The notes under the pieces are model-generated. The model made no database searches, was not told where the DNA came from, and saw nothing but the letters and a program-made list of their open reading frames with translations. From NCBI GenBank assembly GCA_027490055.1, contig JAIXYV010000106.1:30802-94801 (forward strand): a stretch of DNA of 64,000 nucleotides, in the 5' to 3' direction. Numbering within the stretch: the first letter of the stretch is position 1; every line of letters starts with the position of its first letter. The stretch comes from Bacteroidota bacterium. GTDB lineage: Bacteria; Bacteroidota; Bacteroidia; NS11-12g; UBA955. Below are positions 6,952 through 32,596 of the stretch, piece after piece. The translations under genes were made by a program, and so were the position numbers.

Positions 6952-7383
6952 TTGTTCAATATGAAAACCGGTTATTTGTTATTGATTGCAGTATTTTGTC
7001 TTCAAACACTTTCATGTAAGTCAGGCGATGTTTACAAAAGGGACAAAGATCTCTCGATAATCTTTGGAAGTGGAGGTGGATTTACCGGTGCAACAGAGCA
7101 ATATGAAATTAATGGCAAGGGATCTTTAATTAAAGTTAGTTTACCGGGAGATACCACTAAACTACCATCAATATCTAAAAGCCAGAGACGGTATTTGCGT
7201 CAATTAGTTAATTCAGATTCACTGAGTAGAATTAGCTATAATACCTACGCCAATATGACATCTTTCATATATGTGAAGGTGAAAGATAAGCCGCTTTATA
7301 GCTTTCATTGGAATGGCGAAAGTAAATCTTTACAAGCACCATTATTCGCCTTAGATAGTTTTCTTAATACTTTAGTTAAGTAG
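6952..7383 (+). CDS. Hypothetical lipoprotein (143 aa)
   Basis: The product has a signal peptide with a lipobox (LQTLSC) and no recognisable domain. Confidence 0.45.
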   Translation: MFNMKTGYLLLIAVFCLQTLSCKSGDVYKRDKDLSIIFGSGGGFTGATEQYEINGKGSLIKVSLPGDTTKLPSISKSQRRYLRQLVNSDSLSRISYNTYANMTSFIYVKVKDKPLYSFHWNGESKSLQAPLFALDSFLNTLVK

Positions 7384-8671: not shown

Positions 8672-11600
8672 TTGGATCATCTAACATCCATGTTTAAAAA
8701 ATTATTATTTGCTGCATTGGTTATACCGGTGTTTCAAATGCATTCACAGAGTAAATCCGGCAAGGCGCAAGAGCCTTCAAAAGCGCCGGGTACATTTTCA
8801 CAAATTGTTTCCGGACTAGGTTTCAGGAGTATCGGTCCGGCCGTTACTTCGGGCAGAATTGTCGATTTATGCGTTAATCCGCAAAACACTTCACAGTGGT
8901 ATATCGCAGCTGGCAGTGGTGGTGTATGGAAAACAGACAATGCGGGCACAACCTTTTATCCGGTTTTCGAGACTCAGGCGTCTTTTTCAATTGGGTGTAT
9001 CACCATGGATCCATCTAATCAAAATACAATTTGGGTTGGTAGTGGCGAGAACAATAACCAAAGAAGTGTGGCATATGGCGATGGTGTTTACAAGAGTGAA
9101 GATGGTGGAAAGACCTGGAAAAATGTAGGGTTAAAGCTCAGCGAGCATATTGGTATGATTACCGTAGATCCTAATAACAGTCAGGTTGTTTATGTGGCCG
9201 CTTATGGTCCGCTTTGGAGTGCGGGTGGCGACAGAGGAATCTATAAAACTACAGATGGTGGTAAAACCTGGAACCGTATTTTATTTGTCAGTGATAATAC
9301 TGGGTTTAATGAAATTCATATTGATAAGAAGCGTCCAAATATCATGTATGCCACAGCCCATCAGAGAAGAAGACATGAGTGGACCTATTTAGGTGGCGGT
9401 CCGGAATCTGCTATATACAAAAGTATTGATAACGGAAGCACCTGGACTAAGCTGGACAATGGCTTACCAAAAGGCGATGTGGGTCGTATCGGACTGGCTA
9501 TTCCAGATGCTAATACCGATATAGTTTATGCCTTGATAGAAGCTTCTGAAGGCAATGGCGGTTTGTTTAAATCAACTGACCGAGGTGCGAGCTGGACTAA
9601 GCAATCGGGTCATACCACGGCAGGTAATTATTACAATGAAATATTTGCTGATCCGGTAAATCCAGATAAAATTTATTCTATGAATAACTGGGCTGTAGTA
9701 AGTAGCGATGGCGGTAAAACCTTCAAAGGTATTGGCGAGCGCAGCAAGCACGTAGACAACCACGTGATTTGGGTTGATCCAAAAAACACCTCACATTATT
9801 TGATGGGATGTGATGGCGGATTATACGAGACCTGGGATGAAGCGGCGACTTGGAATTACAAAGCCAATTTGTCAATTACCCAGTTTTACAGAGTAAGTAC
9901 TGATAATGCCTTGCCATTTTACAACATCTATGGAGGTACTCAGGATAATAATACATTGGGCGGACCGTCTAGAACCATGAGCGCTAGTGGAATACATAAT
10001 TACGACTGGTTTGTAACGGTAGGGGGAGATGGTTTTAAGACGGTTGTAGACACTAAGAATCCAGATATCGTATATTCTCAATGGCAGTATGGCGGCTTGG
10101 TAAGATTTAACCGTAAAACAGGAGAGGCATTAGATATTAAACCTCAGGAAAAACAGGGAGAACCAGCCTACAGGTATAACTGGGATGCACCAATTGTATT
10201 AAGTAATTTTGAGAATAAGACTTTGTATTTTGCTGCACAGAAGGTATTTAAAAGTACAGACATGGGTAATACCTGGGAAATTATCAGTCCGGATTTATCA
10301 AGAGGAATAGACAGAAATAAACTAAGTGTAATGGGCAAGGTATGGAGCGTTGATGCAGTGGCTAAGAACCAATCGACCAGTATCTATGGCAACGTAACTG
10401 CTTTGGCGGAATCTCCTAAAAATGCTTTGTTGCTGTATGCCGGAACCGATGATGGTTTAATTCATGTAACAAATGACGGTGGTAAATCCTGGTATAAAAC
10501 AGAACAAATAAGCGGTGTTCCAGCTCAATCTCTGGTGCAAAATATATACGCTTCTAAGCACGACGAGAAATTGGTTTATGCCGTGATTAATAATCACAGA
10601 AATGGCGATTTCAAACCTTATTTAGTCAAGTCAGTTGACCAAGGCAGAACATGGACTTTAGTTAATGGCAATTTACCGGAGCGCGGCTCATTGCAATGTT
10701 TGGCAGAGGATCACAAGAATAGAAATCTCTTGTTTTGCGGAACTGATTTTGGTGTTTTTGCCAGTATTGATGCTGGAAAAACCTGGGATAAAATGAGTGG
10801 TTTACCAACCATTTGTGTCAAAGAAATTGCGATTCAAGAGCGTGAGAATGATTTAGTATTAGCAACTTTTGGAAGAGGTTTTTATGTACTGGATGATTAT
10901 TCATCTTTGCAGAACTTTGAGATTGTTAAACAGGCATTAGAAACTAAGCCTGCTGTCATTTTTCCTATCAAAGACGGGTTAGTATTTATGCAGTCGACGC
11001 CACTTGGGCATAAAGGCAAATCGTTCCAGGGAGAAAGTTTTTTCACTGCCGAAAATCCTCCTGTTGGTGCTGTGATTTCATATTACATCAAAGATGATTA
11101 CAAAACCATCAAGAGCTTAAGAAAAGATAGAGAAGAAAAGCAAAGCAATGATTATTACCCATCGGCAGATAGTTTGAGAATAGAAGACAGTGAGCCAGAG
11201 GCCTACATTCTGGCAGTAATAAAAGATGCTGAGGGCAATATTATCAGACAATTTAAACGCGCTGCAGCAAAGGGACATCAGCGATTGGTGTGGAATGGCA
11301 GAATGGAGCGTACCAGTCCTATTACGTTTTACACACCAGATCCGAGCAATCCGTATGAAGGAGAAGATCAGGGACCAATGGCATTGCCAGGCGATTATAC
11401 TATAGAGTTGCACCTGGTAAAAAATTATCAGATTAGTTTATTGACAGGACCAATAGGATTCAAGATTAAAACCTTACATCCAATGAAATCTGATATGAAT
11501 TTTAACAGAGAATTAGCCGATTTCAGAAGGGTTGTTTTGGGCGTGGATGCTTATTGTTCAGAGATTAAAAACAGATTAAGTTTTGTTAAGCAGGGTATTA

Positions 11601-12075: not shown

Positions 12076-14580
12076 TTGAAGCGGATAATCCTTATAGCAG
12101 TTATTTTGAGCAATTTTATATCGCTAAAGGCTTCGCATATAGTGGGTGGGGAGATATTTTACACCTTTGATGGTAGATCAGGGACAAACAACAACTATAC
12201 AGTCACTTTAAACTTATTTGTAGACTGTAATAATGGCACTCCTCAGTCGATTGAGCAGGACAAATCTGCCAGTTTTAATGTCTTCAGGGTTAATCAATCT
12301 AACTACTCATTGTTTACCAGTTATAGTCTTACCAATAGTAGAACTGGTCCTGTGCGTGTTTCGGATATTTCTTACAAGTGTATTAAAAACATTCCTGATA
12401 TCTGTGTCGATAAATACACTTATACTATAAAAATGAGCTTACCAGTTACAACATTGGGGTACGTTATTACATTTGAAAGGTGTTGCAGAAATTCGACCAC
12501 TACCAATATTTTAAATCCAGGAACTACGGGCGCAACTTATTGGACAAAGATCCCAGGAAGTAATTTAGTATCCAGCGATAACAGTCCTCAGTTTAAGTAT
12601 ACCCCGCCAACTTTTATTTGTTTAAATGCCCCTTTAACTTTCGACCATAGCGCTACTGATAAGGATGGTGATTCTTTGGTGTACGAATTGTATACACCAT
12701 ATGAAGGTGCCAGCAGAAACAATCCAATTCCCAGACCAAGCGCCTCTACTAATCCTGCCAATTTCAGCACTATTTCATGGTCGTCAGGTTCGGGGTATTC
12801 TGTGATTAATCAGATAGATGGAAATCCTTCACTTACTATCAATAGAAAAACTGGCAAACTCACTTTGACACCAACGGTGGCAGGACAGTTTGTGATTGGC
12901 ATAAAAGTATTAGAATATCGCAATGGTGTTTTAATAGGAGAAACAAAGCGGGATGTTCAGTTTAATGCCATTACCTGTGTGTTTGAGGTCGTATCATCCT
13001 TTTATTTGCCATCGGTTTTATGTTCAGCCAGTGAATTGAGTATATTGAATCAAAGTCAGGGTGCTACCAGTTATTCATGGGATTTTGGGGTTGTTACCAG
13101 AAAGGATGATACCTCTAATTTAAAGTCGCCGAAATACAAATACGATACATCCGGAAATTTTGAGATCCGTTTGGTGGCCCGGACGACAAAGTGTGCAGAT
13201 ACATTTTATACAGATGTTTATGTCAAGAAGAATTTTATAGTTGAATTGCCCAAGGATACTCTGTATTGCGGAAAATTTACCAAGACACTCAGCAGTAATA
13301 TACCTAATAAATCCAAGTTATGGAATACCGGCGATACTGGGGTAAGCATCACGGTCAATAAACAGGGTATTTATTGGTTAAAAGTATCTGATGACCCTTG
13401 CGTATCTGTAGATTCTACCGTCATCATTAATGATTTGAGTAAAGTTTATGTAGGACGTGATTCGGTAATCTGTACAGATAAATTTAAACCCTATAATTAT
13501 TTGGGACCTCCTGGCTATAAGTCGTACCAGTGGAGCACCGGTCAGGTAAACGATACATTAAGTGTTGCAAAACCCGGTACCTATTGGCTAAGAACTGTAA
13601 ACAGCAATCAATGTTCATCGGCAGATACATTAGAGATTATTGATTATTCGCCGCCCATATTTGACATTAGAGATACTATTTTCTGTCGCAATACAACAGT
13701 AACATTAGATGCCTTGAATCTCAATTCAGCCACACAGGCAGAGAGTAAATATGTATGGAGTAATGGCTCAAATAGCAGCAGCATAACTGTTGGCAGCATT
13801 GGTCAATACACGGTGTTAGTTAGTAATAAGTATTGTCAGCAAAGCGACACAGCAGTCTTAACTTATATTCAGACTGGCTTGGAATTGGGGCCTGATACTT
13901 TTTACTGCGGACCTGTTAACAGAACAGTGTATGCGCAAAATAATTTTATCAGTTACTTGTGGCAGGATGGAACAACTAACAGTTATGACCAGGCCTTATT
14001 ACCCGGAAAGTATAAAGTAACGATTGTTTCTAAAGATGGATGTGTAGAATCTGATTCTATGATGATCATACAGTATCCTGTTTTGGATCCAGGTTTGGGT
14101 GATGACACAACAGTGTGTATTTCATCAGAAATTTATCTCACAGCAGCAGATGGTATGAGCAGTTATTTGTGGAACAATGGAGCCACATCACAAAAGATTT
14201 CGGCCATGGAAAAGGGGCTCTTTACTGTGACGGTAAGCAACAGTCAGGGTTGTATAGCCAGTGATAGTGTGATGGTAAGCACCGATCCGAATGCAGTGCC
14301 GAATGAATTGTTTATGCCAGATGCCTTTACGCCGAATGACGATGGCACCAATGATGTATTTCCCTCCAACAGGTATAACAATCTAAACTCGTATTACCGT
14401 TTAAAAATCTTTAATCGCTGGGGAGAAGAGATCTTCGAAACTCAAGTAACCGGAGTGCAATGGGACGGCACTTTTAATGGCCAGTTAGCGCCACAGGATG
14501 TGTATGTCTTTTTGGTAAGTTCGGTAGGGTGTGATGGCATGGAGCGCCATTTCAGGGGCACTTTCAATTTACTTCGTTAA
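12076..14580 (+). CDS. Cell-surface protein with a T9SS type B sorting domain (gliding motility-associated C-terminal domain); 834 aa with tandem Cys-containing ~65-aa repeats
   Basis: It has a TTG start and a signal peptide. The C-terminus ...FTPNDDGTNDVF...KIFNRWGEEIFET...WDGTFNG...YVF is a canonical type B/CHU_C domain. The central region has 5 repeats of the pattern C..Y.W..G.T...I.V...G.Y.V.V....C...D...I. Confidence 0.8.
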   Translation: MKRIILIAVILSNFISLKASHIVGGEIFYTFDGRSGTNNNYTVTLNLFVDCNNGTPQSIEQDKSASFNVFRVNQSNYSLFTSYSLTNSRTGPVRVSDISYKCIKNIPDICVDKYTYTIKMSLPVTTLGYVITFERCCRNSTTTNILNPGTTGATYWTKIPGSNLVSSDNSPQFKYTPPTFICLNAPLTFDHSATDKDGDSLVYELYTPYEGASRNNPIPRPSASTNPANFSTISWSSGSGYSVINQIDGNPSLTINRKTGKLTLTPTVAGQFVIGIKVLEYRNGVLIGETKRDVQFNAITCVFEVVSSFYLPSVLCSASELSILNQSQGATSYSWDFGVVTRKDDTSNLKSPKYKYDTSGNFEIRLVARTTKCADTFYTDVYVKKNFIVELPKDTLYCGKFTKTLSSNIPNKSKLWNTGDTGVSITVNKQGIYWLKVSDDPCVSVDSTVIINDLSKVYVGRDSVICTDKFKPYNYLGPPGYKSYQWSTGQVNDTLSVAKPGTYWLRTVNSNQCSSADTLEIIDYSPPIFDIRDTIFCRNTTVTLDALNLNSATQAESKYVWSNGSNSSSITVGSIGQYTVLVSNKYCQQSDTAVLTYIQTGLELGPDTFYCGPVNRTVYAQNNFISYLWQDGTTNSYDQALLPGKYKVTIVSKDGCVESDSMMIIQYPVLDPGLGDDTTVCISSEIYLTAADGMSSYLWNNGATSQKISAMEKGLFTVTVSNSQGCIASDSVMVSTDPNAVPNELFMPDAFTPNDDGTNDVFPSNRYNNLNSYYRLKIFNRWGEEIFETQVTGVQWDGTFNGQLAPQDVYVFLVSSVGCDGMERHFRGTFNLLR

Positions 14581-14630: not shown

Positions 14631-14653
14631 AGTACTATGTATTGCATAGTACT
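14631..14653. promoter_or_regulatory. Perfect 9-bp inverted repeat (AGTACTATG-tattg-CATAGTACT) overlapping the -35 region of the padR promoter; probable PadR auto-operator
   Basis: The palindrome is read directly from the sequence and is centred ~30 nt upstream of the padR -7 box. Confidence 0.45.
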
Positions 14654-14665
14654 ATAATTTTATTA

Positions 14666-14673
14666 TACCTTTG
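14666..14673 (+). promoter_or_regulatory. -7 box TACCTTTG, 4 nt upstream of the padR ATG (14678)
   Basis: The sequence matches TAnnTTTG. Confidence 0.45.
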
Positions 14674-14677
14674 CAGC

Positions 14678-15004
14678 ATGGATTTAGAGAATACCCGTTC
14701 GCAGATGCGCAAAGGCATATTGGAATACTGCATTCTCAGTATTATCGGACAGCGCGAGTGTTACGCATCGGATATTATAGAAGAGATGAAGAAAGCCAGG
14801 TTGATAGTGGTGGAGGGCACTTTGTATCCATTGCTTACCAGACTAAAGAATGCAGGCTTATTGCAGTATAAGTGGGAAGAATCTAAATCTGGTCCGCCGC
14901 GCAAGTATTACGCATTAACAACAGAAGGAACATTATTCATTAGTGAGCTCACACAAACCTGGGATGAATTGAGCACAGCAGTAAACACCATTAGACAAAA
15001 ATAA
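14678..15004 (+). CDS. PadR-family transcriptional regulator (~108 aa)
   Basis: The winged helix-turn-helix region GILEYCILSIIGQRECYASDIIEEM...GTLYPLLTRLKNAGLL...KYYALTTEG is typical of PadR. The start is chosen at MDLENT, and the ORF-track start at 14642 is probably too far upstream. Confidence 0.85.
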   Translation: MDLENTRSQMRKGILEYCILSIIGQRECYASDIIEEMKKARLIVVEGTLYPLLTRLKNAGLLQYKWEESKSGPPRKYYALTTEGTLFISELTQTWDELSTAVNTIRQK

Positions 15005-15016
15005 AAACACTACAAT

Positions 15017-16525
15017 ATGAACAAAATCATCAGTGCCAACATTAACGGCTTCATTTTTAGCGTCGACGAGAAAGCTTACGAGCATTTGAGGCAGTATCTG
15101 GACAGCATCAGACAGAAGGTAAAGAATGAGGAGGTAATGACGGATATAGAGAACCGTATTGCGGAGTTATTTGATTACAAGATCAAGAACGGATCGCAGG
15201 CGATTTTAATGAAAGATGTGGAAGAGATTATTAGTCAGATAGGCTCGCCGGAGCAATTTGGCGGAGAGGAGCACGAAGAAGAAAAGACACAGCGTGCTGA
15301 AACCAGCAGTTTTCAGCGCCGCAAGTACCGTCGTCTATACCGCAACGAAGATGATAAAATGATAGGCGGTGTTTGTAGCGGATTAGCGGCCTATTTTGGG
15401 ATAGACCCCATGTTGGTGCGAGTAGCATTTGCCTTATCCTTTTTTGCTTTCGGCACAGGCTTTTTGTTATATATATTTTTGATGGTAATAGTACCAAAAG
15501 CGGTTACACCTTCAGAGAAATTGGAGATGATGGGAGAGCCGGTAGATTTTAATAACTTGGGCAAGACCATTGAGAAAGACATCAAGGATGCTTATGACAG
15601 ATACCGTCCGGAGGTAAAAACTGGCTTTGAGCGATTTTTAGAGATAGCAGTTAAGATTGGAGGCATTGTGCTGTTCATTTTTGTGCTTAGCATCATAATA
15701 CCTACCGGCTTTGGAGTTTTTGCCTCTATCGGGCTCGTATCATGGTTTTTGCCAGTAATAAGCAGCTACATCTTCGTGAGCGAAACACAAGCCATCATTA
15801 TTTTAATTGGTTTAATATTATTTTTACTGGTGCCTTTGGTGAGTGTGGCTTACAAGATCATTCAATTTTTATTTAAGACCAGACCCATGCACAGGGGTTT
15901 ATCAATTGCATTATCTGTTTTTTGGTTTATTGGATTTTGCTTGTTGGCTTACAGTACCTACAATACCGCCTCACAGTTTTCAAACAGCACATCCGTCAGC
16001 AGTAACGACACTATAGCAACTCAGGGCACTTTAGTAATAAGGGCCAAGAATACCGGCAGTGATTCAGAATTTGAATTCAGGGCCAATGGCGTGAATTATA
16101 CGCATTTTCAGAGTGAAGATGATTTACGTGAATTTTTAGACGACAGAATAGGCAGGAACATAGAACTCAGTATTGTCAGATCGTACGTCAATCAAGCAGT
16201 GGTGAGTGTAATCAAGCGATCGAATGGTGCTAATCGCAGAGAAGCATATATGAATTCTGAGAATATTTTATACCATTACGAAATCAAGGATTCCATCATC
16301 ACATTGGACGATTTTTTTAGATTAGACAGACAGAGTTTATGGCGCAATCAACGTGTAAAGATTGTGATTGCGGTACCGGTTGCACAGAAGTTCATTATCG
16401 ACAGCAGTTGTGAGCCAATATTTGAGGAGGACAATATCGAGCGCGGCACCAGAGCGCGTGATGAAGATTCGATATACGACAAGACTCTGGAGCTGAATGA
16501 CAAAGGGGTTTTAGCGGGGAAGTAG
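15017..16525 (+). CDS. PspC-domain membrane protein (502 aa) in a PadR-PspC envelope-stress-type module
   Basis: The PspC motif is DKMIGGVCSGLAAYFGIDPMLVRVAFAL. It is followed by multiple TM helices and a C-terminal soluble domain. Confidence 0.75.
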   Translation: MNKIISANINGFIFSVDEKAYEHLRQYLDSIRQKVKNEEVMTDIENRIAELFDYKIKNGSQAILMKDVEEIISQIGSPEQFGGEEHEEEKTQRAETSSFQRRKYRRLYRNEDDKMIGGVCSGLAAYFGIDPMLVRVAFALSFFAFGTGFLLYIFLMVIVPKAVTPSEKLEMMGEPVDFNNLGKTIEKDIKDAYDRYRPEVKTGFERFLEIAVKIGGIVLFIFVLSIIIPTGFGVFASIGLVSWFLPVISSYIFVSETQAIIILIGLILFLLVPLVSVAYKIIQFLFKTRPMHRGLSIALSVFWFIGFCLLAYSTYNTASQFSNSTSVSSNDTIATQGTLVIRAKNTGSDSEFEFRANGVNYTHFQSEDDLREFLDDRIGRNIELSIVRSYVNQAVVSVIKRSNGANRREAYMNSENILYHYEIKDSIITLDDFFRLDRQSLWRNQRVKIVIAVPVAQKFIIDSSCEPIFEEDNIERGTRARDEDSIYDKTLELNDKGVLAGK

Positions 16526-16544
16526 GTTGTTTGAATAAGGCTAC

Positions 16545-16760
16545 CTAGAACAATAAATATCCCAATTTGAAATGGAATAACGAGCTTTTCCTTGTTGGAC
16601 TAAAACCATAAACACTCGGATTAATTGAAGTACCTGGTTGTGGATGAATCTTTTCAAAATTGTGATTATAGCTTCCTTCAATGCCGATTGATATTCTATT
16701 TTTGATTATGTAATTTATAATTAATCCTGCAGTGTAACCCTCCCTAAAACTAGTACGGAT
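16545..16760 (-). pseudogene. Start-less ~70-codon fragment resembling the C-terminal half of the adjacent 224-aa OMP-like gene (paralog remnant)
   Basis: The minus-strand translation is ...TSFREGYTAGLIINYIIKNRISIGIEGSYNHNFEKIHPQPGTSINPSVYGFSPTRKSSLFHFKLGYLLF*. It shares FREGY and (V/I)GIE(T/G)(Q/S)YNH(F/N)FE(S/K) with the 16857..17531 product. Stop codons lie in-frame just upstream and there is no start codon. Confidence 0.4.
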
Positions 16761-16856
16761 TAAAAGTCAAATATTTCAATTTTGCGGTCCTCCTCGTATT
16801 AGTGCGTTTCTAAAGTAGAAAATCCAGGGTCTATTTGTAGAAAATATGCTTCAAAT

Positions 16857-17531
16857 TCATTTTCTCTTCCAATCTATGGTAATCCCTAATTTAAAAGCAA
16901 TATTAATGACATTCTTATTGACTTTATGTTCCGGTATTTGGTCTATTTTATAATTAGAATTATCATAAGGTTTCTTGGACTCAAAAAAGTGATTATATTG
17001 GGTTTCAATTCCGACAGTAAATACTCTTCCAATCACTCTGTTCAGATCGAATCCGAATCCGATAGAAGGACTGAGATATTCATAATTGATCACTGTGTAG
17101 TGATGCCACCCATAGCCTTCTTCAATGTAAATACGTTCATATCCTTCTCTGAAACCAAGGCTGAGCTGCGGAATAAAATTCATTTTTGTTTTTTCATGGT
17201 AAAAAAACCTGCCATAGTGAATAGATCCCCCTATGCTTAGTCTATTAATTACGTCATTTCTTAAGGAAATTTTTCCTTCAGGATAGTAAAGCTCATGTAA
17301 ATAGGAGGAAATACCATAGTAATTTCGTCTTGATATTAAATAGATTTTTGCGAATGTCACCTTAGGTTCATTAGTGTAGAAGAACCGCACATTCTGATCC
17401 TCCATATACCATGGAACCGATTTTCCAATCTCTATGGATATCCTTTTCAGAGAATCTATGGGACTTGTCTGTGAATATGAATACATTACATTCACAGACA
17501 AGCTAATTACGATTAAAGGTCTTATATTCAT
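16857..17531 (-). CDS. Hypothetical secreted/outer-membrane beta-barrel-like protein (224 aa)
   Basis: The product has a signal peptide. Alternating aromatic/hydrophobic beta-strand patterning runs throughout, and it ends in aromatic-rich ...AFKLGITIDWKRK. Confidence 0.45.
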   Translation of the reverse strand: MNIRPLIVISLSVNVMYSYSQTSPIDSLKRISIEIGKSVPWYMEDQNVRFFYTNEPKVTFAKIYLISRRNYYGISSYLHELYYPEGKISLRNDVINRLSIGGSIHYGRFFYHEKTKMNFIPQLSLGFREGYERIYIEEGYGWHHYTVINYEYLSPSIGFGFDLNRVIGRVFTVGIETQYNHFFESKKPYDNSNYKIDQIPEHKVNKNVINIAFKLGITIDWKRK

Positions 17532-17836
17532 AGCTTTAAAATTTTATATCTAAAATTAACTTCTTCAAAGTTAATACAAAGAGAATAGATTCCTGAACCA
17601 AGACTGCTAATATCTATTGAACTTAATTCTTCCATATTGCTTTCTAAGGATAGAACATTTACGCCAAATTGGTTTACGATGTTAATTTTAACCGGAATCC
17701 ATTTGGAATAATTATACAGAATCCCCCAATTTATATTAATTTTATCATTTGAAGGATTTGGATATAATGTGGAAAAGCCGATGATATTGACCCCTCTGTG
17801 CCGAAGTAAATTAACCCCCTGTAGATAAATGTTCAA
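17528..17836 (-). pseudogene. Orphan T9SS type A C-terminal sorting domain-only ORF (102 aa, TTG start); probable 3' remnant of a lost cargo gene
   Basis: The product is essentially only a Por secretion-tail domain (...STLYPNPSNDKININ...GIYSLCINFEEVNFRYKILKL). The upstream in-frame open stretch is only ~30 codons before a stop and contains no ATG. Confidence 0.45.
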
Positions 17837-17910
17837 AATTGATGAATAGTTTGAAATTAAAATGTCAATTACTTTTTGAGGAGTGTTAGCAGAGAAGTAG
17901 GTTGTTTTAA

Positions 17911-19464
17911 TTACCCACTCCAGTTTTCTCTATCCAGACTTCTGTAGTGAATGGCTTCGGCCAGGTGATGGGTTTGAATGTCAACTGAGTTGTCTAAATC
18001 GGCTATGGTGCGAGCTACTTTCAGAATCCTGTCGTAGGCGCGGGCGCTTAGGTTGAGGCGTTGCATAGCGGTCTTGAGCAAGTTATTGCCAGCATCTGTA
18101 ATAGCGCATAAAACTTTGATCTGATTGCCCGGCATCTGGGCATTGCAATAGATGCCTTCCCGTTTCTGATACCGCTCAAGTTGAATGGCTCTGGCATTGA
18201 TAACCCTTTGTCTGACAATGGTACTTTTTTCGTTATTTCTTTTCGATGAAGATAGTTCCTCAAAACTCACTGGTGTTACCTCGATATGGATATCAATTCT
18301 GTCTAATAGCGGTCCGCTGATTTTACTGAGGTATTTCTGCACCACTACAGAGCCACAGGAACATTCTCTGTCAGGGTGGTTGTAGTAGCCACAGGGGCAG
18401 GGATTCATACTGGCCACGAGCATAAATCCAGCGGGATAATCGACCGAGAATTTGGCTCTGGCGATGTTCACTTTCCTGTCTTCGAGGGGCTGTCGCATCA
18501 CTTCAAGAACGGTGCGTTTAAATTCTGGTAATTCATCTAAAAAAAGAACGCCATTGTGGGCCAGAGAAATTTCGCCTGGTTGCGGGGTATTGCCACCGCC
18601 TACCAATGCCACATCGCTGATTGTATGATGGGGTGCTCTGAATGGTCGATGTACCACTAAGCCCTTACCATCGTTTAAACGGCCAGCAACAGAGTGAATT
18701 TTGGTCGTTTCCAGGGCTTCACTTAAAGTCATGGGTGGCAAAATACCCGGCAGGCGTTTTGCGAGCATGGTTTTACCAGCGCCGGGCGGACCGATCAAAA
18801 TGATATTATGACCACCAGCTGCGGCTATTTCCATAGCGCGTTTGATGTTTTCCTGACCTTGCACATCGGCAAAGTCGAGGTCGAAGTCGCTTGCCGCCTG
18901 CTCGAAATCGATGGCAGATAAATCGCTTTCAGGTTCAAGATCAGAAGTACCATTAAAAAACTCCAGCAATTCAGACAGATTCTCGACACCGATAACATCT
19001 AAACCAGAGACTATGGCGGCTTCTCTGGCATTTTGTTTGGGAAGAATAAATCCTTTAAATCCATCGTCTCGCGCCTGAATAGCAATAGGCAGAGCACCTC
19101 TGATAGGTAGCACACTGCCATCCATGGACAATTCCCCCATAATGATATAGTCTTCAATATTACTGGTATTCTTAATTTGATGATCGGCTGCAAGTACAGC
19201 GATGGCGATTGTAAGATCGTAGGCACTGCCTTCTTTACGGATATCAGCAGGGGCCATATTCACCACAATTTTCTTTCGCGGGAAGTCTCGGCCATTATTT
19301 TTAAAGGCAGTGGTAATACGGGTCCAGCTTTCTTTAACTGCATTATCTGGCAGGCCCACCATGATAAATTTGGCGCCATCGCCACTGACATTTACTTCAA
19401 CTGTAATGGTACAGGCATTGATGCCGAATACGGCAGATCCAAAGGTTCTTATAAACATACTCAA
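17911..19464 (-). CDS. comM: YifB/ComM-family Mg-chelatase-like AAA+ ATPase
   Basis: The product has an N-terminal Lon-protease-like S5 domain (FGINACTITVEVNVSGDGAKFIMVGLPDNAVKES), Walker A (ILIGPPGAGKTML), Walker B (GVLFLDELPEF) and a Cys cluster (CPCGYY...CSC). Confidence 0.9.
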   Translation of the reverse strand: MSMFIRTFGSAVFGINACTITVEVNVSGDGAKFIMVGLPDNAVKESWTRITTAFKNNGRDFPRKKIVVNMAPADIRKEGSAYDLTIAIAVLAADHQIKNTSNIEDYIIMGELSMDGSVLPIRGALPIAIQARDDGFKGFILPKQNAREAAIVSGLDVIGVENLSELLEFFNGTSDLEPESDLSAIDFEQAASDFDLDFADVQGQENIKRAMEIAAAGGHNIILIGPPGAGKTMLAKRLPGILPPMTLSEALETTKIHSVAGRLNDGKGLVVHRPFRAPHHTISDVALVGGGNTPQPGEISLAHNGVLFLDELPEFKRTVLEVMRQPLEDRKVNIARAKFSVDYPAGFMLVASMNPCPCGYYNHPDRECSCGSVVVQKYLSKISGPLLDRIDIHIEVTPVSFEELSSSKRNNEKSTIVRQRVINARAIQLERYQKREGIYCNAQMPGNQIKVLCAITDAGNNLLKTAMQRLNLSARAYDRILKVARTIADLDNSVDIQTHHLAEAIHYRSLDRENWSG

Positions 19465-22397: not shown

Positions 22398-22555
22398 AAT
22401 AAATATATGGGTTACAAAAATAAGGGACTTAATTGGAGAAACAATAAAATTAGGGTAGAGTGAAATTTTAGCGGATTAAATAGCGTTTATAGTATATATG
22501 TTGACAAAAATAAGGGCTAAAAAGTTGTCTGAGGTATAAATTTGTAGGTTTAGGT

Positions 22556-23794
22556 ATGAAAAAGAGTCTTTCTGCATTTGTTCTCGTGTTGATGAGTACG
22601 TTGGTTTTACGGTCGCAAACCCAGACCATAAAACAGTATATTGATAGTTTCAAGCAGGTGGCCATGATAGAAATGGTAGAGTACAAGATACCGGCGAGTA
22701 TTACATTGGCGCAGGGACTATTGGAGAGTGGCAGTGGGAATAGCAGGTTAGCCAAGCAGGGAAATAACCATTTCGGTATAAAGTGTAAAAAAGACTGGAC
22801 AGGTTGTACGATATTAGAAGACGATGATGCTTTACAAGAGTGTTTCAGGTGTTACAAGACCGCAGAAGAGAGTTATAAGGATCATTCGAGATTTTTAAAA
22901 GAGAATAAGCGCTATGCAGCTTTGTTTCAATTAAGCATAACGGATTATAAGGGATGGGCTGCTGGATTATTAGCGGCTGGGTATGCTACCAATCAGAAGT
23001 ATTCAGAGTTATTAATCAGAACCATAGAGAAAAACGGCTTAGCCAGTTTTGATACATTAATTGTAAACGGTTTTAATCCTTATTCGACCGTAGTTCCGGC
23101 CAAGATAGAGATAGTAGATAATAAAGTACCTTCTACAGTAGTGCAGCCAAATCAGACAGTGAGCAGTATTGCAGAGGCCAGTGACAAGACCGCTAGGAAG
23201 ATTAGCAAGTACAATGATTTAACGTATCACAAGCAGATAGAGCCTGGGGATGTATTATATTTAAAACCAAAGAAGCGCAAGGCAAGTGTAGAGAGTCACA
23301 AGGTCGGCGAGGGAGAGACCATGTGGGAGATATCACAGAAGTATGCTATAAAGATCAACTCCTTATATAAGAAGAATTTGATGGTGCCTGGTACAGAGCC
23401 AAAGGCTGGAGTTGTATTGCAGCTGCAGAGCAAGGCCGCATCGAGGCCAGATACAGGCAGGGTAGAGTTAAAGAAAGAAATGGAGAATGAATACCATACG
23501 GTAGGTGCCGGTGAGACCTTATATAGTATAAGCAGGATTTATGGGATTAAGGTTGAGGAACTGATTGCTATGAATAGCATTATTAATAATCAGATACAAC
23601 CTGGGCAGAGGTTACTAGTTAAAAAGACTCAGGGGGCACAAACAGGAAGTGTCAAGCACACAGTTCAGGCTGGAGAAACATTATACAGTATATCAAAGCG
23701 TTACAATGTAACGGTATCATCAATAAAGAGTATTAACAATTTGACAAGCGATAGTTTAACTATTGGTCAGGTTTTAGAAATACAAAAGCCTTAG
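22556..23794 (+). CDS. Secreted mannosyl-glycoprotein endo-beta-N-acetylglucosaminidase (FlgJ-like glucosaminidase domain) with three C-terminal LysM domains
   Basis: The product has a signal peptide. The glucosaminidase region is ...ITLAQGLLESGSGNSRLAKQGNNHFGIKC...YATNQKYSELLI. The LysM repeats are HKVGEGETMWEISQKY, YHTVGAGETLYSISRIYG and HTVQAGETLYSISKRYN. Confidence 0.8.
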   Translation: MKKSLSAFVLVLMSTLVLRSQTQTIKQYIDSFKQVAMIEMVEYKIPASITLAQGLLESGSGNSRLAKQGNNHFGIKCKKDWTGCTILEDDDALQECFRCYKTAEESYKDHSRFLKENKRYAALFQLSITDYKGWAAGLLAAGYATNQKYSELLIRTIEKNGLASFDTLIVNGFNPYSTVVPAKIEIVDNKVPSTVVQPNQTVSSIAEASDKTARKISKYNDLTYHKQIEPGDVLYLKPKKRKASVESHKVGEGETMWEISQKYAIKINSLYKKNLMVPGTEPKAGVVLQLQSKAASRPDTGRVELKKEMENEYHTVGAGETLYSISRIYGIKVEELIAMNSIINNQIQPGQRLLVKKTQGAQTGSVKHTVQAGETLYSISKRYNVTVSSIKSINNLTSDSLTIGQVLEIQKP

Positions 23795-26900: not shown

Positions 26901-28139
26901 CCAGGTGCTCCTGGTTGTATCGAGGCTGACAGAGACAATCTGCCATATGTTGATCCAGGTGCAACTGCAACTGACAACAAAGCGCCTTTCAATCTGACAT
27001 CTTCTATTGTAACTTCAGGTTCTGTTGATACAAGAACAATTGGCAACTATGTAATCACTTACTATGTACAAGACGTAGCTGGTAACTCTGTAACTAAAAC
27101 AAGAAACGTTTGTGTTGAAGATACCAAAAAGCCTACTATCTTATCTTTAGGTGATACTTCAGTTCAAATTGGTAGTGTTTGGTTAGATCAGACTTCAGTT
27201 GAAGACAGATATGACAACAACCCAGTATTAACTAAAGAGTGGGGCTTCAACGGTCCGGTTAACACTTTAGTAAGAAGAACTTACCCTGTAACCTACTATG
27301 CAGTAGATCAAAGCGGTAACCAAGCTACTCCAGTAGTGAGAAACTACAGAGTTGACGACTTCATTGCTCCAGTTATTAGCTTAAACACTTTTGACATTGT
27401 AAACCATGAAGTAAGAACTCCATACAATTCAGTTGCTGCTTCAGTAACTGATAACTACTACCCAGCTGGTCAAGTAAGTTTAGTGAAAATTTCTAGCAAC
27501 GTTAACCCTAACGTATTAGGAACTTACACTGAAGTATTTGAAGCTATCGACGGTTCTGGTAACGTTACAACTAAAACAAGAACTGTTATGGTTGTTGATA
27601 CAAAAGCTCCAAGAATCTGGGGTGAAATCATCCACGGTTGCGTAGGTGAAAACATCTGGCCAATGTGGGGTATTTCAACTACTGACAACTACTACAGTCC
27701 AGCTCAGTTGAAGCCACTTGTTGAGGTTGTTAACCAAAACGTAAATATTTGGGAAGAAGGTATCTACACTATCACTTACAGAGTAACTGATCCAAGTGGA
27801 AATACTTCTAACGAATTCACTAGAATGGTATACTTCACCTACTGGCCTAAATGTACTAACAGTACAGTATCAGTTGATGATTTAAAATCAGTAGAAGAAA
27901 GAGTAAGCGTATACCCTAACCCAAGTAACGGTATCGTAAACATCGACCTGCAAGGTGCATTAGTACAAACTGCAACACTTGAAGTTTACAATGCTATGGG
28001 TCAGTTAGTAGTAAGCAAAAACTACAACGAAGTAAGCGGTAAATTTGATGTAGACTTAAGCGGTAATGCAGCTGGTGTTTACACTATCAAGTTAATTGCT
28101 AACGGCGAAGTAGTAACTAAGCGCGTAGTACTTCAGTAA
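23946..28139 (+). CDS. T9SS cargo protein, paralog A (1397 aa): signal peptide, N-terminal GEVED-type module, CUB-like domain, second GEVED region, 5 Ig-like (DUF5011/HYR-type) repeats and a T9SS type A C-terminal sorting domain
   Basis: The sorting domain is ...VSVYPNPSNGIVNIDLQGALVQTATLEVYNAMGQLV...AGVYTIKLIANGEVVTKRVVLQ. GEVED-like motifs are present (GETVDFSINL, GEYEDYGLVL). The Ig-like repeats start PPVITLTGSDTVRIEVGSSYTDAGATAFDASEGNITG... Confidence 0.85.
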   Translation: MKRLITNLKALKLMLAAPLLGLFGMTASAQAPWCDGFHMYNNTTYYSSSNYIFALDQIRISSGGTVLFNVPADGFSGGSTCGSEWRLANPTSRAIDLTAGNSYTVEASGSSGSYAYGGSIGVFVDYNNDKDFLDAGEYQGAFTVPGTVQTPSTLGSRTFTVPCNITPSATRLRVVGNYSGYPMNQSYGCSTCSGPPYYGETVDFSINLVLPTSVSANFIAPTNTWVKVVNKFINSNQSGYTEHAWDANNDGSYEQRSVVPNYSNPQFMWTTPGTKCVKLRSTNCLGRDSIVKCFNVQSPTAVPVVDFVADRVTIEQYQSMRLFDLSTNGPWSWTWDVYDSTTYASSGYYPNLTDGDLYSDPWGNGNNEFTQNPEFAFDIPGCYTIVMTCKNDVGPSATKRKVCYVTVTLPTQYNLGYGTYGPNNDNVVGSTSGTIFDDGGPNLNYGNNQGLGSRSFLQITPCNAKKIVLTMSRLKFKDAGDKLSVWDGKSPGGPGTTLLATWSVGAKAPQKVTATSGSMYLLFEADAAGVDSGYAGSYTSELGPATLPSPAFTPNTVPSYNSTPVKFTNTTQNIVGVPTWEWTIDGAQVANNTKKDFNYTFYTDGQYDVCLEIKSCVGNNKSCQKIDVITPNTQTSLDFIATNRRPNINVDFSTLIPVSDNANRFEWTIFPTSYTLMNPPASPSTYGAGFVKYNATPGDSIPKPRLKFTAPGCYTITLKAYNSLDPTNTSRTIVKNKFICALDYCKPSSYILSSDVGINRVRIVDGTTDLINNYSTSGDVAYTDYSATVKANLTYGKTYTLEVSRTSNVDPANRKGWIDWNIDGDFDDAGEQIFFETSTYNQVYTTTFTVPALSASFEGLTKMRIAANYNNESTTACGPITAGEYEDYGLVLANDNTPPVITLTGSDTVRIEVGSSYTDAGATAFDASEGNITGNLVMTTDLDAAVTGLYTVEYNVTDKSGNKAVPAIRTIIVVNDLTKPILTLNPGAPGCIEADRDNLPYVDPGATATDNKAPFNLTSSIVTSGSVDTRTIGNYVITYYVQDVAGNSVTKTRNVCVEDTKKPTILSLGDTSVQIGSVWLDQTSVEDRYDNNPVLTKEWGFNGPVNTLVRRTYPVTYYAVDQSGNQATPVVRNYRVDDFIAPVISLNTFDIVNHEVRTPYNSVAASVTDNYYPAGQVSLVKISSNVNPNVLGTYTEVFEAIDGSGNVTTKTRTVMVVDTKAPRIWGEIIHGCVGENIWPMWGISTTDNYYSPAQLKPLVEVVNQNVNIWEEGIYTITYRVTDPSGNTSNEFTRMVYFTYWPKCTNSTVSVDDLKSVEERVSVYPNPSNGIVNIDLQGALVQTATLEVYNAMGQLVVSKNYNEVSGKFDVDLSGNAAGVYTIKLIANGEVVTKRVVLQ

Positions 28140-31400: not shown

Positions 31401-32596
31401 CATACGTTGATCCAGGTGCAACTGCAACTGATAACAAAGCGCCATTCAATTTGAATTCTTCAATTGTTACTACTGGTACAGTTGATACAAGAACAATTGG
31501 CAACTATGTAATCACTTACTATGTGCAAGACGTAGCTGGTAACTCTGTAACAAAAACAAGAAACGTTTGTGTTGAAGATACCAAAGCTCCAATGGTAGAA
31601 GTTCTAGGTGATACTTCAATTCAGATCGGAAGTGTTTGGATTGATCAGACATCTGCAACTGATGCCTATGATTTGACTCCAACTCTTAACAAAACATGGT
31701 GGACAGTACCAGTTAATACTTTAATAAGAGCTACATACAGCGTAACTTATGAAGCAGTTGACGGTTCAGGTAATATTTCGAATCCAGCTACTGTAAGACA
31801 TTACAGAGTTGATGACTTCATTCCTCCTGTTATTAGTTTAAACACATTTGATATAGTTCAGCATGAGGTAAGAACGCCTTACAACTCTATTGCTGCAACT
31901 GTTTCTGATAACTACTATAGCTCAGGTCAGGTTTCAATCATCAGAAAATCAAGCAATGTTAATTACAATGTTTTAGGCACATATACCGAAGTATTCGAAG
32001 CTATCGATGGATCAGGTAACATTTCAACTAAAACCAGAACAGTTAAAGTGGTAGATACAAAATCTCCTACACTTTGGGGTCAGGTTATCCATGGTTGCGT
32101 TGGTGAAAACATCTGGCCAATGTGGGGTCTGTCAACTACTGACAACTACTACAGTCCAAGTCAGTTATTACCATTAGTAGAAGTGGTTAGTCAAAACGTA
32201 AACATTTGGGAAGAAGGTATCTACTCTATCACTTACAGAGTAACCGACCCAAGTGGTAATACATCTGAAGAGTTCACCAGATTGGCGTACTTCACTTACT
32301 GGCCAAAATGTTACAACAGTACAGTATCAGTTGATGATCTGAAATCTGTTGAAGAGAAAGTAAGCGTATACCCTAACCCAAGTAACGGTATCGTAAACAT
32401 CGACCTGCAAGGTGCATTAGCGCAAACTGCAACCCTTGAAGTTTACAATGCAATGGGTCAGCTGGTAGCAAGCAAAAACTACAGCGAAGTAAGCGGTAAA
32501 TTTGATGTAGACTTAAGAGGTAATGCAGCTGGTGTTTACACTATCAAGTTAATTGCTAACGGCGAAGTAGTAACTAAACGCGTAGTGCTTCAGTAA
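28481..32596 (+). CDS. T9SS cargo protein, paralog B (~1372 aa from MNKFTNYY; the ORF-track start at 28448 is probably spurious): same architecture as paralog A with a divergent N-terminal module
   Basis: The signal peptide is FVLALFLLLGVSTASAQ. From ~aa 200 onward it aligns with paralog A at ~85-90% identity. The C-terminal sorting domain is near-identical to A. Confidence 0.85.
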   Translation: MNKFTNYYNEKMGFARYFVLALFLLLGVSTASAQYCASNATSTADEDIASVYLKGNTVTLNNVSAAPTCQTYTDWTALTPVDLSAGRQYSIVITESTCNGHYTYACNAWIDYNKNNTFESGEAVAPTSQSKNGANAVFTYTWTVPCNITPGNTRMRVVMIEGAVSNPSSACGTYTWGETEDYTVNLQLPTSVNANFIAPSSAWVKAVVKFINQNPTGYISHSWNANNDATIEAPNSVNFNYTWTTPGNKCVKLKSTNCLGSDSIVKCLNVVAPTAVPVADFVADRVTIEQYGSMRLYDLSSNGPWDWTWDVYDSTTYASSGFYPSLATGELYSDPWGNGNNEFSQNPEFAFDYPGCYTIVLTSKNDVGPSVTKRKVCYITVTLPTQYNLGYGTYGPNNDNVVGSSAGTIFDDGGPGLNYGNNQGLGSRSFLQITPCNAKKITLKMTTLKFKDAGDKLRVWDGKTPGGPGTTLLATWTMGSKAPAAVVATSGSMYLLFEADAAGVDSGYAGSYTSELGPATVPVPAFSPNSVPSYNSTPIFFTNTTQNIVGVPTWEWTIDGAQVNNNTGKDFRYTFYTDGQYEVCAEIKSCVGNNKTCKTIDVITPNQQTMLDFTASSRRPNINVDIVSLIPSSDNANRFEWTIFPTSYTLMNPPASPSTYGTGFVKYNATPGDSIPKPRLKFNSPGCYTITLKAYNSLDPTNTTKTVVKNKFICALDYCLPASYILSTDVGINRVRVVDGTNDLINNYTTSGDVSYTDYSSTVKANLTYGKSYTIEVSRTGNVDPANRKAWIDWNIDGDFDDAGEQILTESSSYNQVYSTTFTVPALSASFEGSTRLRVATNYNNENTTACGPITAGEYEDYGIVLANDNMPPVITLLGSDTVRIEVGSNYTDAGATAYDASEGNISSSLVMTTDLDAAVTGLYTVEYNVTDKSGNRAVPAIRTIIVVNDLTKPILTLNPGTSGCIEARRDNLPYVDPGATATDNKAPFNLNSSIVTTGTVDTRTIGNYVITYYVQDVAGNSVTKTRNVCVEDTKAPMVEVLGDTSIQIGSVWIDQTSATDAYDLTPTLNKTWWTVPVNTLIRATYSVTYEAVDGSGNISNPATVRHYRVDDFIPPVISLNTFDIVQHEVRTPYNSIAATVSDNYYSSGQVSIIRKSSNVNYNVLGTYTEVFEAIDGSGNISTKTRTVKVVDTKSPTLWGQVIHGCVGENIWPMWGLSTTDNYYSPSQLLPLVEVVSQNVNIWEEGIYSITYRVTDPSGNTSEEFTRLAYFTYWPKCYNSTVSVDDLKSVEEKVSVYPNPSNGIVNIDLQGALAQTATLEVYNAMGQLVASKNYSEVSGKFDVDLRGNAAGVYTIKLIANGEVVTKRVVLQ

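Follow-up and report, generated by a model that had tools for sequence, protein, structure and literature searches.

A probable decayed remnant of a T9SS protease–barrel gene pair in a repeat-bracketed block between pspC and comM of a Bacteroidota bacterium

A block of AT-rich DNA lying between pspC and comM was analyzed in a 64,000-nucleotide (nt) stretch of contig JAIXYV010000106.1 of a Bacteroidota bacterium (GCA_027490055.1; the whole stretch is called the window below). The block holds an open reading frame (ORF) of 102 residues, most of it a type IX secretion system (T9SS) C-terminal sorting domain (CTD), a gene for a 224-residue protein and a stretch of open codons with no start; all three were found on the minus strand, where an earlier note made from the sequence alone had placed them. 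The locus is likely a decayed remnant of a two-gene module consisting of a T9SS-secreted M4 protease and a small outer-membrane beta-barrel, of which the barrel gene is intact, and it sits in a repeat-bracketed block recently exchanged between lineages. Comparison contigs (mostly metagenomic) are labelled L### and proteins, mainly members of the barrel family, P####.

Sorting-domain stump and its protease counterparts

The 102-residue ORF was matched to Por_Secre_tail (PF18962; E=5.7e-11, 43 bits, cut-off 27), with residues 24-95 covering positions 1-69 of the 75-position model, and to TIGR04183 (27.6 bits, cut-off 23), so that the curated thresholds of both type A sorting-domain models were passed. 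Its best NCBIfam alignments were to the C-termini of T9SS-dependent metallopeptidases. Other features of a T9SS cargo protein were lacking: neither a hydrophobic leader or signal peptide nor a passenger domain was found, and 23 residues precede the CTD. The frame is open for 31 further codons upstream, to 17929, within the 3' end of comM and in a frame different from that of comM. The TGA stop of the ORF overlaps the ATG of the 224-residue gene (ATGA), as read straight from the sequence.

Homologs of the 224-residue protein are encoded next to complete proteases elsewhere. P0003 (37% identical) lies directly downstream of 610-684-residue proteins with PF01447, PF02868 and PF18962 domains in the three independent contigs L040-L042, P0005 (32% identical), in L046, follows 1 nt downstream of a protein of 621 residues or more with FTP, PepSY, Peptidase_M4, M4_C and Por_Secre_tail domains, and P0010, on the short contig L035, is preceded by a CTD-coding end (E=7e-8). 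The two full-length M4 proteases (L040-L042 type and L046) were 40% identical over their full length, which indicates joint inheritance of protease and barrel. In L040 the true ATG of the barrel gene, backed by a 228-residue cluster member (P0015), overlaps the TGA of the protease gene; this stop/start overlap is ATGA, as in the window, and TTGA in L002. Judged by gene order and domain content, the rare barrel family is consistently paired with T9SS-secreted thermolysin-like M4 proteases in other Bacteroidota-like metagenomic genomes.

The CTD of the 102-residue ORF was 31% identical to that of the L040 M4 protease over 80 residues (E=5e-9). The tails end, each directly before the stop codon, in GIYSLCINFEEVNFRYKILKL (window), DIYSLCINFEKTTFRFKIVKI (L002) and GVYTLCIKIGDAYLRFRFIKL (L040), with the shared pattern …GxYxLCI…RFxxxKL. 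Because barrel homologs stand downstream of M4 proteases with T9SS tails, the ATGA overlap is shared and the tails are alike, the ORF is most probably the 3' stump of a T9SS-secreted, M4-type protease gene. The earlier note had taken it for the remnant of a larger T9SS cargo gene and had proposed that the intact ancestor be sought at related loci; the remnant reading holds, and the M4 protease–barrel pairs of L040-L042 and L046 supply the counterpart. What that note had described as the locus of an outer-membrane protein gene family appears to be, instead, a protease–barrel pair minus its protease. When the L040-L042 and L046 proteases were searched against the whole window by tblastn, no M4 catalytic-domain match was obtained, and CTD-type tails only were matched, at 17531-17767 (L040-L042 queries) and weakly at 27894-28121 (L046 query); the M4 peptidase signature (PF01447/PF02868 with HExxH) was likewise not found at the locus.

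Two further observations were made on the intact pairs. The pair of L040 (1928-4665) has a GC content of 33%, compared with 39% for the flanking nusA and 41% for the flanking moxR-like gene, and its context (nusA … moxR) is unlike that of the window; low GC and different context are consistent with a mobile accessory module. In L039 (7770-7802; GCA_963169345.1) the M4 protease gene before P0003 is frameshifted at an eight-G run inside the CTD, with most of the sorting domain lost, and the frame at this site is intact in L040-L042; phase variation, decay and an assembly error are all possible causes of the frameshift.

The stump differs between strains and lineages. Contigs L036 and L037 carry a slightly diverged 24-nt tandem duplication (ACCCCTCTGTGCCGAAGTAAATTA / ACCCCTTTGTGCCGGAGAAAATTG) with its insertion point at window 17813/17814, upstream of the CTD, by which eight in-frame codons (a GVNLLRHR-like repeat) are added to the non-CTD part of the ORF. 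In L038, a 631-bp metagenome scaffold, positions 1-345, unrelated and very AT-rich, are of low complexity and reach as far as LYPNPS, from which point the CTD follows with one residue difference and then the start of the 224-residue gene; the junction is either another 5' breakpoint of the stump or the mark of a chimeric scaffold. In L002, a lineage whose barrel protein is 45% identical, the comM-to-barrel gap is 240 nt, compared with 379 nt in the window, and approximately the last 35 CTD residues alone are recognizable, in a 46-codon TTG ORF. Approximately the last 100 nt before the barrel start, including the -7 box region described below, are kept in both.

These differences bear on an alternative in which the 102-residue ORF is a small gene with a function of its own, for instance as a decoy or regulator in T9SS sorting. 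Chance seldom yields so long an open frame (10 of 3000 Markov simulations of the block gave 133 codons or more), and the Por_Secre_tail domain is present in full and passes the gathering threshold, but the ORF starts at TTG, has no signal peptide and was not called by the gene caller on the Logan contig. Its only between-strain indel is in frame, yet its N-terminal 20-50 residues are not conserved between strains and in L002 little of it is left. An ATGA overlap with the gene that follows is what translated upstream ORFs typically show, but here it would have been inherited from the intact protease gene. A functional small gene is accordingly judged very unlikely, and the ORF is best read as a pseudogene, the leftover 3' stump of a larger T9SS cargo gene. 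The suggestion that a sorting-domain peptide might compete for the T9SS sortase/PorV pathway was rejected: with no signal peptide the product would have no access to the periplasm, and the 5' part of the ORF varies and is mostly gone in L002.

The retained part of the stump may matter for the gene behind it. A Bacteroidota-type -7 motif lies within the stump (Table 1) and was the only minus-strand match to the pattern in 16400-18100, where the background was 0.64 per kb per strand; at the aligned position L002 has TAATTTTG, approximately 35 nt before its barrel start. No such motif was seen by eye at the protease–barrel junctions of L040 or L046, where no formal scan was made. Terminator-like sites were not predicted anywhere in 16300-18100, including the interval between comM and the block, sigma-70-type promoter matches were not enriched in the region (6 against 7.3 expected), and Rfam (E<=1) and tRNA scans of the region gave no matches. 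The stump may have survived because the sequence upstream of the barrel gene, probably with a promoter, lies in it. That gene is presumably expressed from this internal promoter and/or by read-through from comM, which is possible because comM lies upstream on the same strand and no terminator was predicted.

Barrel protein and start-less fragment

The N-terminus of the 224-residue protein is signal-peptide-like, and its leader, MNIRPLIVISLSVNVMYSYSQ, contains no cysteine. The protein had no Pfam or NCBIfam match and was 99.5-100% identical across strains. A word-indexed search of 5.8 billion proteins returned the protein itself and one 45%-identical homolog only; an exhaustive HMMER search of 1.84 billion cluster representatives returned 10 relatives at E<=1e-3, all of 214-239 residues save one 80-residue fragment. 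Five proteins were returned by a family-profile search, and a metagenome scan with a three-sequence alignment recovered only the same block, in two other contigs. Full-length homologs had identities as low as 23-46%, and the family has a YNHxFE motif in common, as well as a terminal KLG strand. Wherever a source names these proteins they are called "hypothetical protein"; the family is rare and hitherto unannotated.

An AlphaFold2 model built on the family alignment (predicted local distance difference test score, pLDDT, 79.2; predicted template modelling score, pTM, 0.73) consists of a leader helix and eight long strands. The top Foldseek matches against the PDB were the OmpA transmembrane domain, NspA, Ail, OmpX and OmpW (E down to 2.4e-5, probability 1.0), at template modelling (TM) scores of only 0.4-0.55. 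Weak matches to PF13505 (OMP_b-brl) were obtained for 4 of 11 family members (best E=0.0015), the window protein itself having none, and the family profile gave 0 matches among PDB sequences. From the model, the protein is predicted to be a small eight-stranded outer-membrane barrel, in agreement with its earlier description as resembling an outer-membrane protein. The locus had also been described as decayed; this stands for the CTD ORF and for the fragment considered next, and does not extend to the 224-residue gene, which is intact and conserved, with full-length homologs and a confident model. In a separate observation, the gene of the family member P0012 (L034) is bracketed by an approximately 82-nt direct repeat (approximately 88% identical) of its own 5' end, at 51-132 and 775-856; the second copy runs in frame into the following gene, which therefore opens with a duplicated signal peptide ahead of its own.

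The start-less fragment comprises 73 open codons (16548..16766) with a stop at 16545-47 and contains FREGY and IGIEGSYNHNFEK; its frame runs up to the stop of the 224-residue gene through three in-frame stops (16767-69, 16776-78 and 16851-53). It was matched to P0006 by phmmer (E=1.9e-8) and by BLASTP (37% over 57 residues), and also to P0003, P0008 and P0011, over spans of 57-72 residues with the conserved YNHxFE and KLG strands. Reciprocally, it was recovered by tblastn with P0006 (at 16557-16730) and P0011. The homology covers the last three strands of the family and ends with the terminal strand followed by the stop.

Whether the stretch could be a chance open frame, its motif matches to the 224-residue protein being coincidental, was weighed against these results. 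Open stretches of 73 codons were reached in 35% of Markov simulations of the block; the FREGY of the fragment is probably not aligned to that of its neighbour, the family alignment starting downstream of it; and nucleotide similarity to the 224-residue gene was marginal (a 34-nt alignment, with 52 of 1000 shuffles scoring as well). Chance does not, however, account for significant matches to several independent family members, for the reciprocal recovery or for an end at the family's terminal strand, and this explanation is regarded as negligible. Since open length alone is not unusual, the fragment is counted as real because of its protein homology, and the earlier view of it as a truncated family member is upheld.

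That view had included a partial duplication of the neighbouring gene, for which a nucleotide alignment had been named as the check. A recent duplicate was rejected: similarity is weak in nucleotides (the 34-nt alignment above) and in protein (41% over just 29 residues), and distant members match better. As its neighbour resembles it no more than distant members do, the fragment is the dead 3' part of an old, divergent paralog. No tandem paralogs or fragments were found downstream of other family members. Within the fragment (16574-16733), the window and L036 differ at 10 positions, clustered at 16613-16673; by codon, in the frame of the pseudogene, 5 differences are synonymous and 4 non-synonymous, and the in-frame stops are common to both lineages. 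A short tract of gene conversion, with an intact paralog elsewhere as donor, may explain the cluster, or it may have arisen by chance (binomial p about 0.05).

Table 1. Features of the pspC–comM interval and its flanks, with nucleotide identities to contigs L036 and L037.
Feature	Position in window	Strand	Description
pspC-like gene	15017..16525	+	Left flank; PspC, PspC transmembrane region and ToastRack domains (PF04024, E=8.9e-25; PF22744; PF22571)
Direct-repeat copy 1	16504..16536	+	33 nt; end of pspC (…GVLAGK, stop) plus 11-nt spacer
Start-less fragment	16545..16856	-	Pseudogene fragment of a second, divergent barrel-family member; approximately the C-terminal 40% (about a third); no start codon, no 5' half
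Block core	16767..17878		About 99.7% (99.1-99.9%) identical to L036 and L037, from per-segment identities and a 100-nt profile
224-residue gene	16857..17531	-	ATG start, intact; predicted 8-stranded outer-membrane beta-barrel
CTD ORF	17528..17836	-	102 residues, TTG start; most probably the 3' stump of a T9SS-secreted protease gene; type A sorting domain approximately 17552-17767
-7 motif	17566..17573	-	Bacteroidota-type TAnnTTTG (TAACTTTG), from a pattern scan; approximately 35 nt upstream of the 224-residue gene start, inside the CTD stump
Direct-repeat copy 2	17879..17911	+	pspC-end-like (…GVLAEK, stop) plus spacer; abuts the comM stop codon
comM	17911..19464	-	Right flank, upstream of the block on the same strand; comM/YifB-type Mg-chelatase-like AAA ATPase (TIGR00368, E=2e-187)
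Last 540 nt of pspC, and fragment			97% identical to L036/L037
Last 170 nt of comM			About 94% identical to L036/L037
Rest of comM			80% identical to L036/L037
gmhA-like gene			87% identical to L036/L037
dsbD-like gene			83% identical to L036/L037
Sequence beyond	22398-23506		82% identical to L036/L037

Repeats, insertion and exchange between lineages

The genes pspC and comM are convergent, with the AT-rich block in between (GC 29-34%, compared with 42-47% in pspC and comM); the genes around the block encode PadR, PspC, ComM, an SIS-domain protein and a DsbD-like protein. In the 1.4-kb block, the three elements described above are the only ORFs of note. The block is bracketed by a 33-nt direct repeat, of which copy 1 contains the final 22 nt of pspC. 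Neither this repeat nor the exchange between lineages described below figures in the earlier note. The copies are identical at 28 of 33 positions and share an exact 14-nt core, GAAGTAGGTTGTTT, which occurs at these two sites only in the window; the alignment score was reached by 0 of 5000 shuffles. Bracketing by an imperfect duplication of the pspC 3' end is the mark of an insertion event, of which the mechanism can be proposed as follows.

The block may have arrived as a small, now non-autonomous integrative element by site-specific recombination at the pspC 3' end, the 33-nt repeats representing left and right attachment (att) sites, attL and attR. The repeats have the fitting form of an exact core (14 nt here, probably 18 nt ancestrally, cf. 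L036) and a diverged arm, all four arm differences lying in the left 15 nt, but the comparison is of a single repeat pair. Copy 2 has GGA GTG, like the pspC ends of L003 and L004, which fits a displaced original pspC end. The GC of the block is low and direct repeats lie at a gene 3' end, as in genomic islands, yet no integrase or other recombinase gene, transposase or tRNA was found in or beside it, and L002 has a diverged copy of the module beside comM without this repeat. The tract of high identity with L036/L037 moreover extends past the repeats, into pspC on one side and 170 nt of comM on the other, in keeping with plain homologous recombination. Entry through att sites is on balance considered rather unlikely, the alternative being that a fragment from outside was taken up and recombined, either homologously or by homology-facilitated illegitimate recombination. 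The original entry of the block could have been either site-specific integration of the element or homology-facilitated illegitimate recombination.

A second island in the same interval also bears on the insertion. In L003, a Chitinophagaceae metagenome-assembled genome with a 91% identical PspC, the pspC–comM interval encodes a 159-residue secreted protein, a 591-residue T9SS-tailed protein and a LuxR-type regulator, and in L004 it holds three other genes. On either side of the 3.2-kb island of L003 (7237-10456) stands an exact 27-nt direct repeat of the 3' end of comM (7210-7236 and 10457-10483), and the displaced copy is still joined to the native flank downstream of comM, a flank that L002 shows as well. 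The style of insertion is that of the window, at the end of the other gene. Looking up the exact PspC and ComM proteins brought no additional arrangements to light. Next to pspC in L003 there may be a remnant of the fragment's 3' end (score reached by 20 of 2000 shuffles), but it is only suggestive and was not used as evidence. Apart from these arrangements, the pspC ORF of L003 closes at 6987 (465 residues), and tblastn homology to the window PspC runs to 7095, which suggests a frameshift or assembly error near its 3' end; L004, a more distant relative, carries three tandem copies of a 33-nt unit (ACTTTAAAATAACAAGGTAAATATTAAAGCATC) at 10024-10122, approximately 70 nt downstream of the comM stop.

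Nucleotide identity between the window and L036/L037 is highest over the block core and falls on both sides of it (Table 1); the pspC segment compared there is just 74% identical between the window and L003. Over 4.7 kb the window is matched at 100% identity by L001, an independent assembly, and the structure of L036/L037 is supported by two independent assemblies. The discontinuity in identity indicates a recent transfer of at least 2 kb between species-level lineages, most simply by homologous recombination through pspC and the comM 3' end, as the distribution of identities suggests.

Taken as a sequence of events, the intact module would have consisted of a T9SS-secreted thermolysin-like (M4) metalloprotease, with propeptide, catalytic domain and type A tail, followed by the small eight-stranded barrel. 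All protease sequence upstream of the sorting tail would then have been lost here, leaving a 102-codon stump that could not be exported, the last 100 nt or so of which would be kept for the overlap with the barrel start and for the probable promoter. The barrel gene has stayed intact and is presumably expressed, and downstream of it lies the dead 3' part of another family member that diverged long ago. The block would have been inserted in the variable pspC–comM interval and later moved between species-level lineages by recombination through its flanks. The data themselves establish the domain assignments, the pairing of the genes, the truncation, the direct repeat and the break in identity; promoter activity, expression of the barrel gene, the route of insertion and any functional tie of protease to barrel are inferred.

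Several points weigh against this account. The M4 assignment of the lost passenger draws on synteny with genes whose CTDs are 31% identical, catalytic-domain remnants being absent, and the upstream context was readable in part of the family, L034, L043 and L045 having too little upstream sequence or no clear gene. A protein search with the extended CTD ORF found only a strain variant (P0013) and no close full-length parent. With 133 open codons in AT-rich DNA and a complete Pfam-recognizable domain, the ORF has either been truncated recently or is under some constraint, and the sole indel between strains (24 nt) is in frame. The promoter is proposed from a consensus match, and no well-spaced -33 element accompanies it. 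Finally, L036 and L037 are metagenome contigs and could in principle be chimeric assemblies, though two independent assemblies agree.

Other features of the window were noted in passing. An 834-residue protein encoded upstream of pspC (12076-14580) has a CHU_C type B T9SS signal domain (PF13585, E=2.3e-15), so that, with the type A tail of the block, the genome uses both T9SS tail types. The PadR-family regulator is encoded directly before pspC (14642-15004). Weak CTD-like matches occur elsewhere in the window at 27906-28124 and 32363-32581.

Relation to known systems and implications

The stump has the complete type A CTD of T9SS cargo (PF18962/TIGR04183), as carried by metallopeptidases of the M36 (NF038113) and M6-like (NF052323) types and by the M4 proteases of L040 and L046. 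Its tail is like those of the latter, but it has no signal peptide, propeptide or catalytic domain, as befits a remnant. The 224-residue protein resembles the OmpA transmembrane domain, OmpX/Ail, NspA and OmpW in its signal peptide, eight long antiparallel strands and top Foldseek matches. Unlike OmpA/OmpX/OmpW-type barrels, it has no Pfam or NCBIfam match, belongs to a very rare family and is linked to a T9SS protease gene.

A barrel-type outer-membrane protein next to a T9SS cargo gene is also seen where PorP/SprF is encoded beside cargo with a type B CTD, but no PF11751 match was obtained here at E<=1, the tail is of type A, and the 224-residue protein is much smaller. Decayed integrative elements with att-like repeats share with the block a discrete low-GC segment at a gene 3' end bracketed by an imperfect repeat of that end. 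They differ in that no recombinase gene and no second locus with the same repeat were seen here, and the exchange fits homologous recombination via the flanks.

A parallel in arrangement is offered by the potempins of Tannerella forsythia, which are described in PMC9890683 as outer-membrane lipoprotein inhibitors of 98-132 residues encoded beside, and upstream of, the genes for T9SS-secreted KLIKK peptidases. T9SS-secreted peptidases can thus pair with small outer-membrane partners, as the potempins show (PMC9890683), and the likeness lies in a T9SS-secreted peptidase gene in tandem with a gene for a small outer-membrane-associated protein. Compared with the potempins as characterized in that source, the 224-residue protein is longer, has no lipobox cysteine, is a predicted integral barrel and is encoded downstream, and no sequence relation was found. 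By analogy, it is possible that the barrel is a cognate partner, an inhibitor or an anchor of the protease.

As a decayed locus, the block is ordinary, and pseudogenized cargo genes and variable intergenic hotspots are common. It illustrates cleanly the exchange of an accessory block of 1.1-2 kb between lineages approximately 18% different in neighbouring genes, and the repeat-bracketed insertions at both gene ends of the interval offer a small model for accessory surface-gene movement in Chitinophagaceae-like bacteria. For annotation, it carries a warning that CTD-only ORFs may be promoter-bearing stumps and not genes. More tentatively, the barrel family might be a dedicated outer-membrane partner (anchor, receptor, or self-protection factor or inhibitor) of T9SS M4 proteases, co-inherited with them as a translationally coupled mobile two-gene module, the pspC–comM interval acting as an insertion hotspot with 27-33-nt duplications of the flanking 3' ends. 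If this were true, the barrel partner would have survived and spread between species after loss of the protease, pointing to a protease-independent function. The conserved association between a rare barrel family and T9SS M4 proteases is the most useful lead, giving a testable accessory-factor hypothesis for a class of T9SS cargo.

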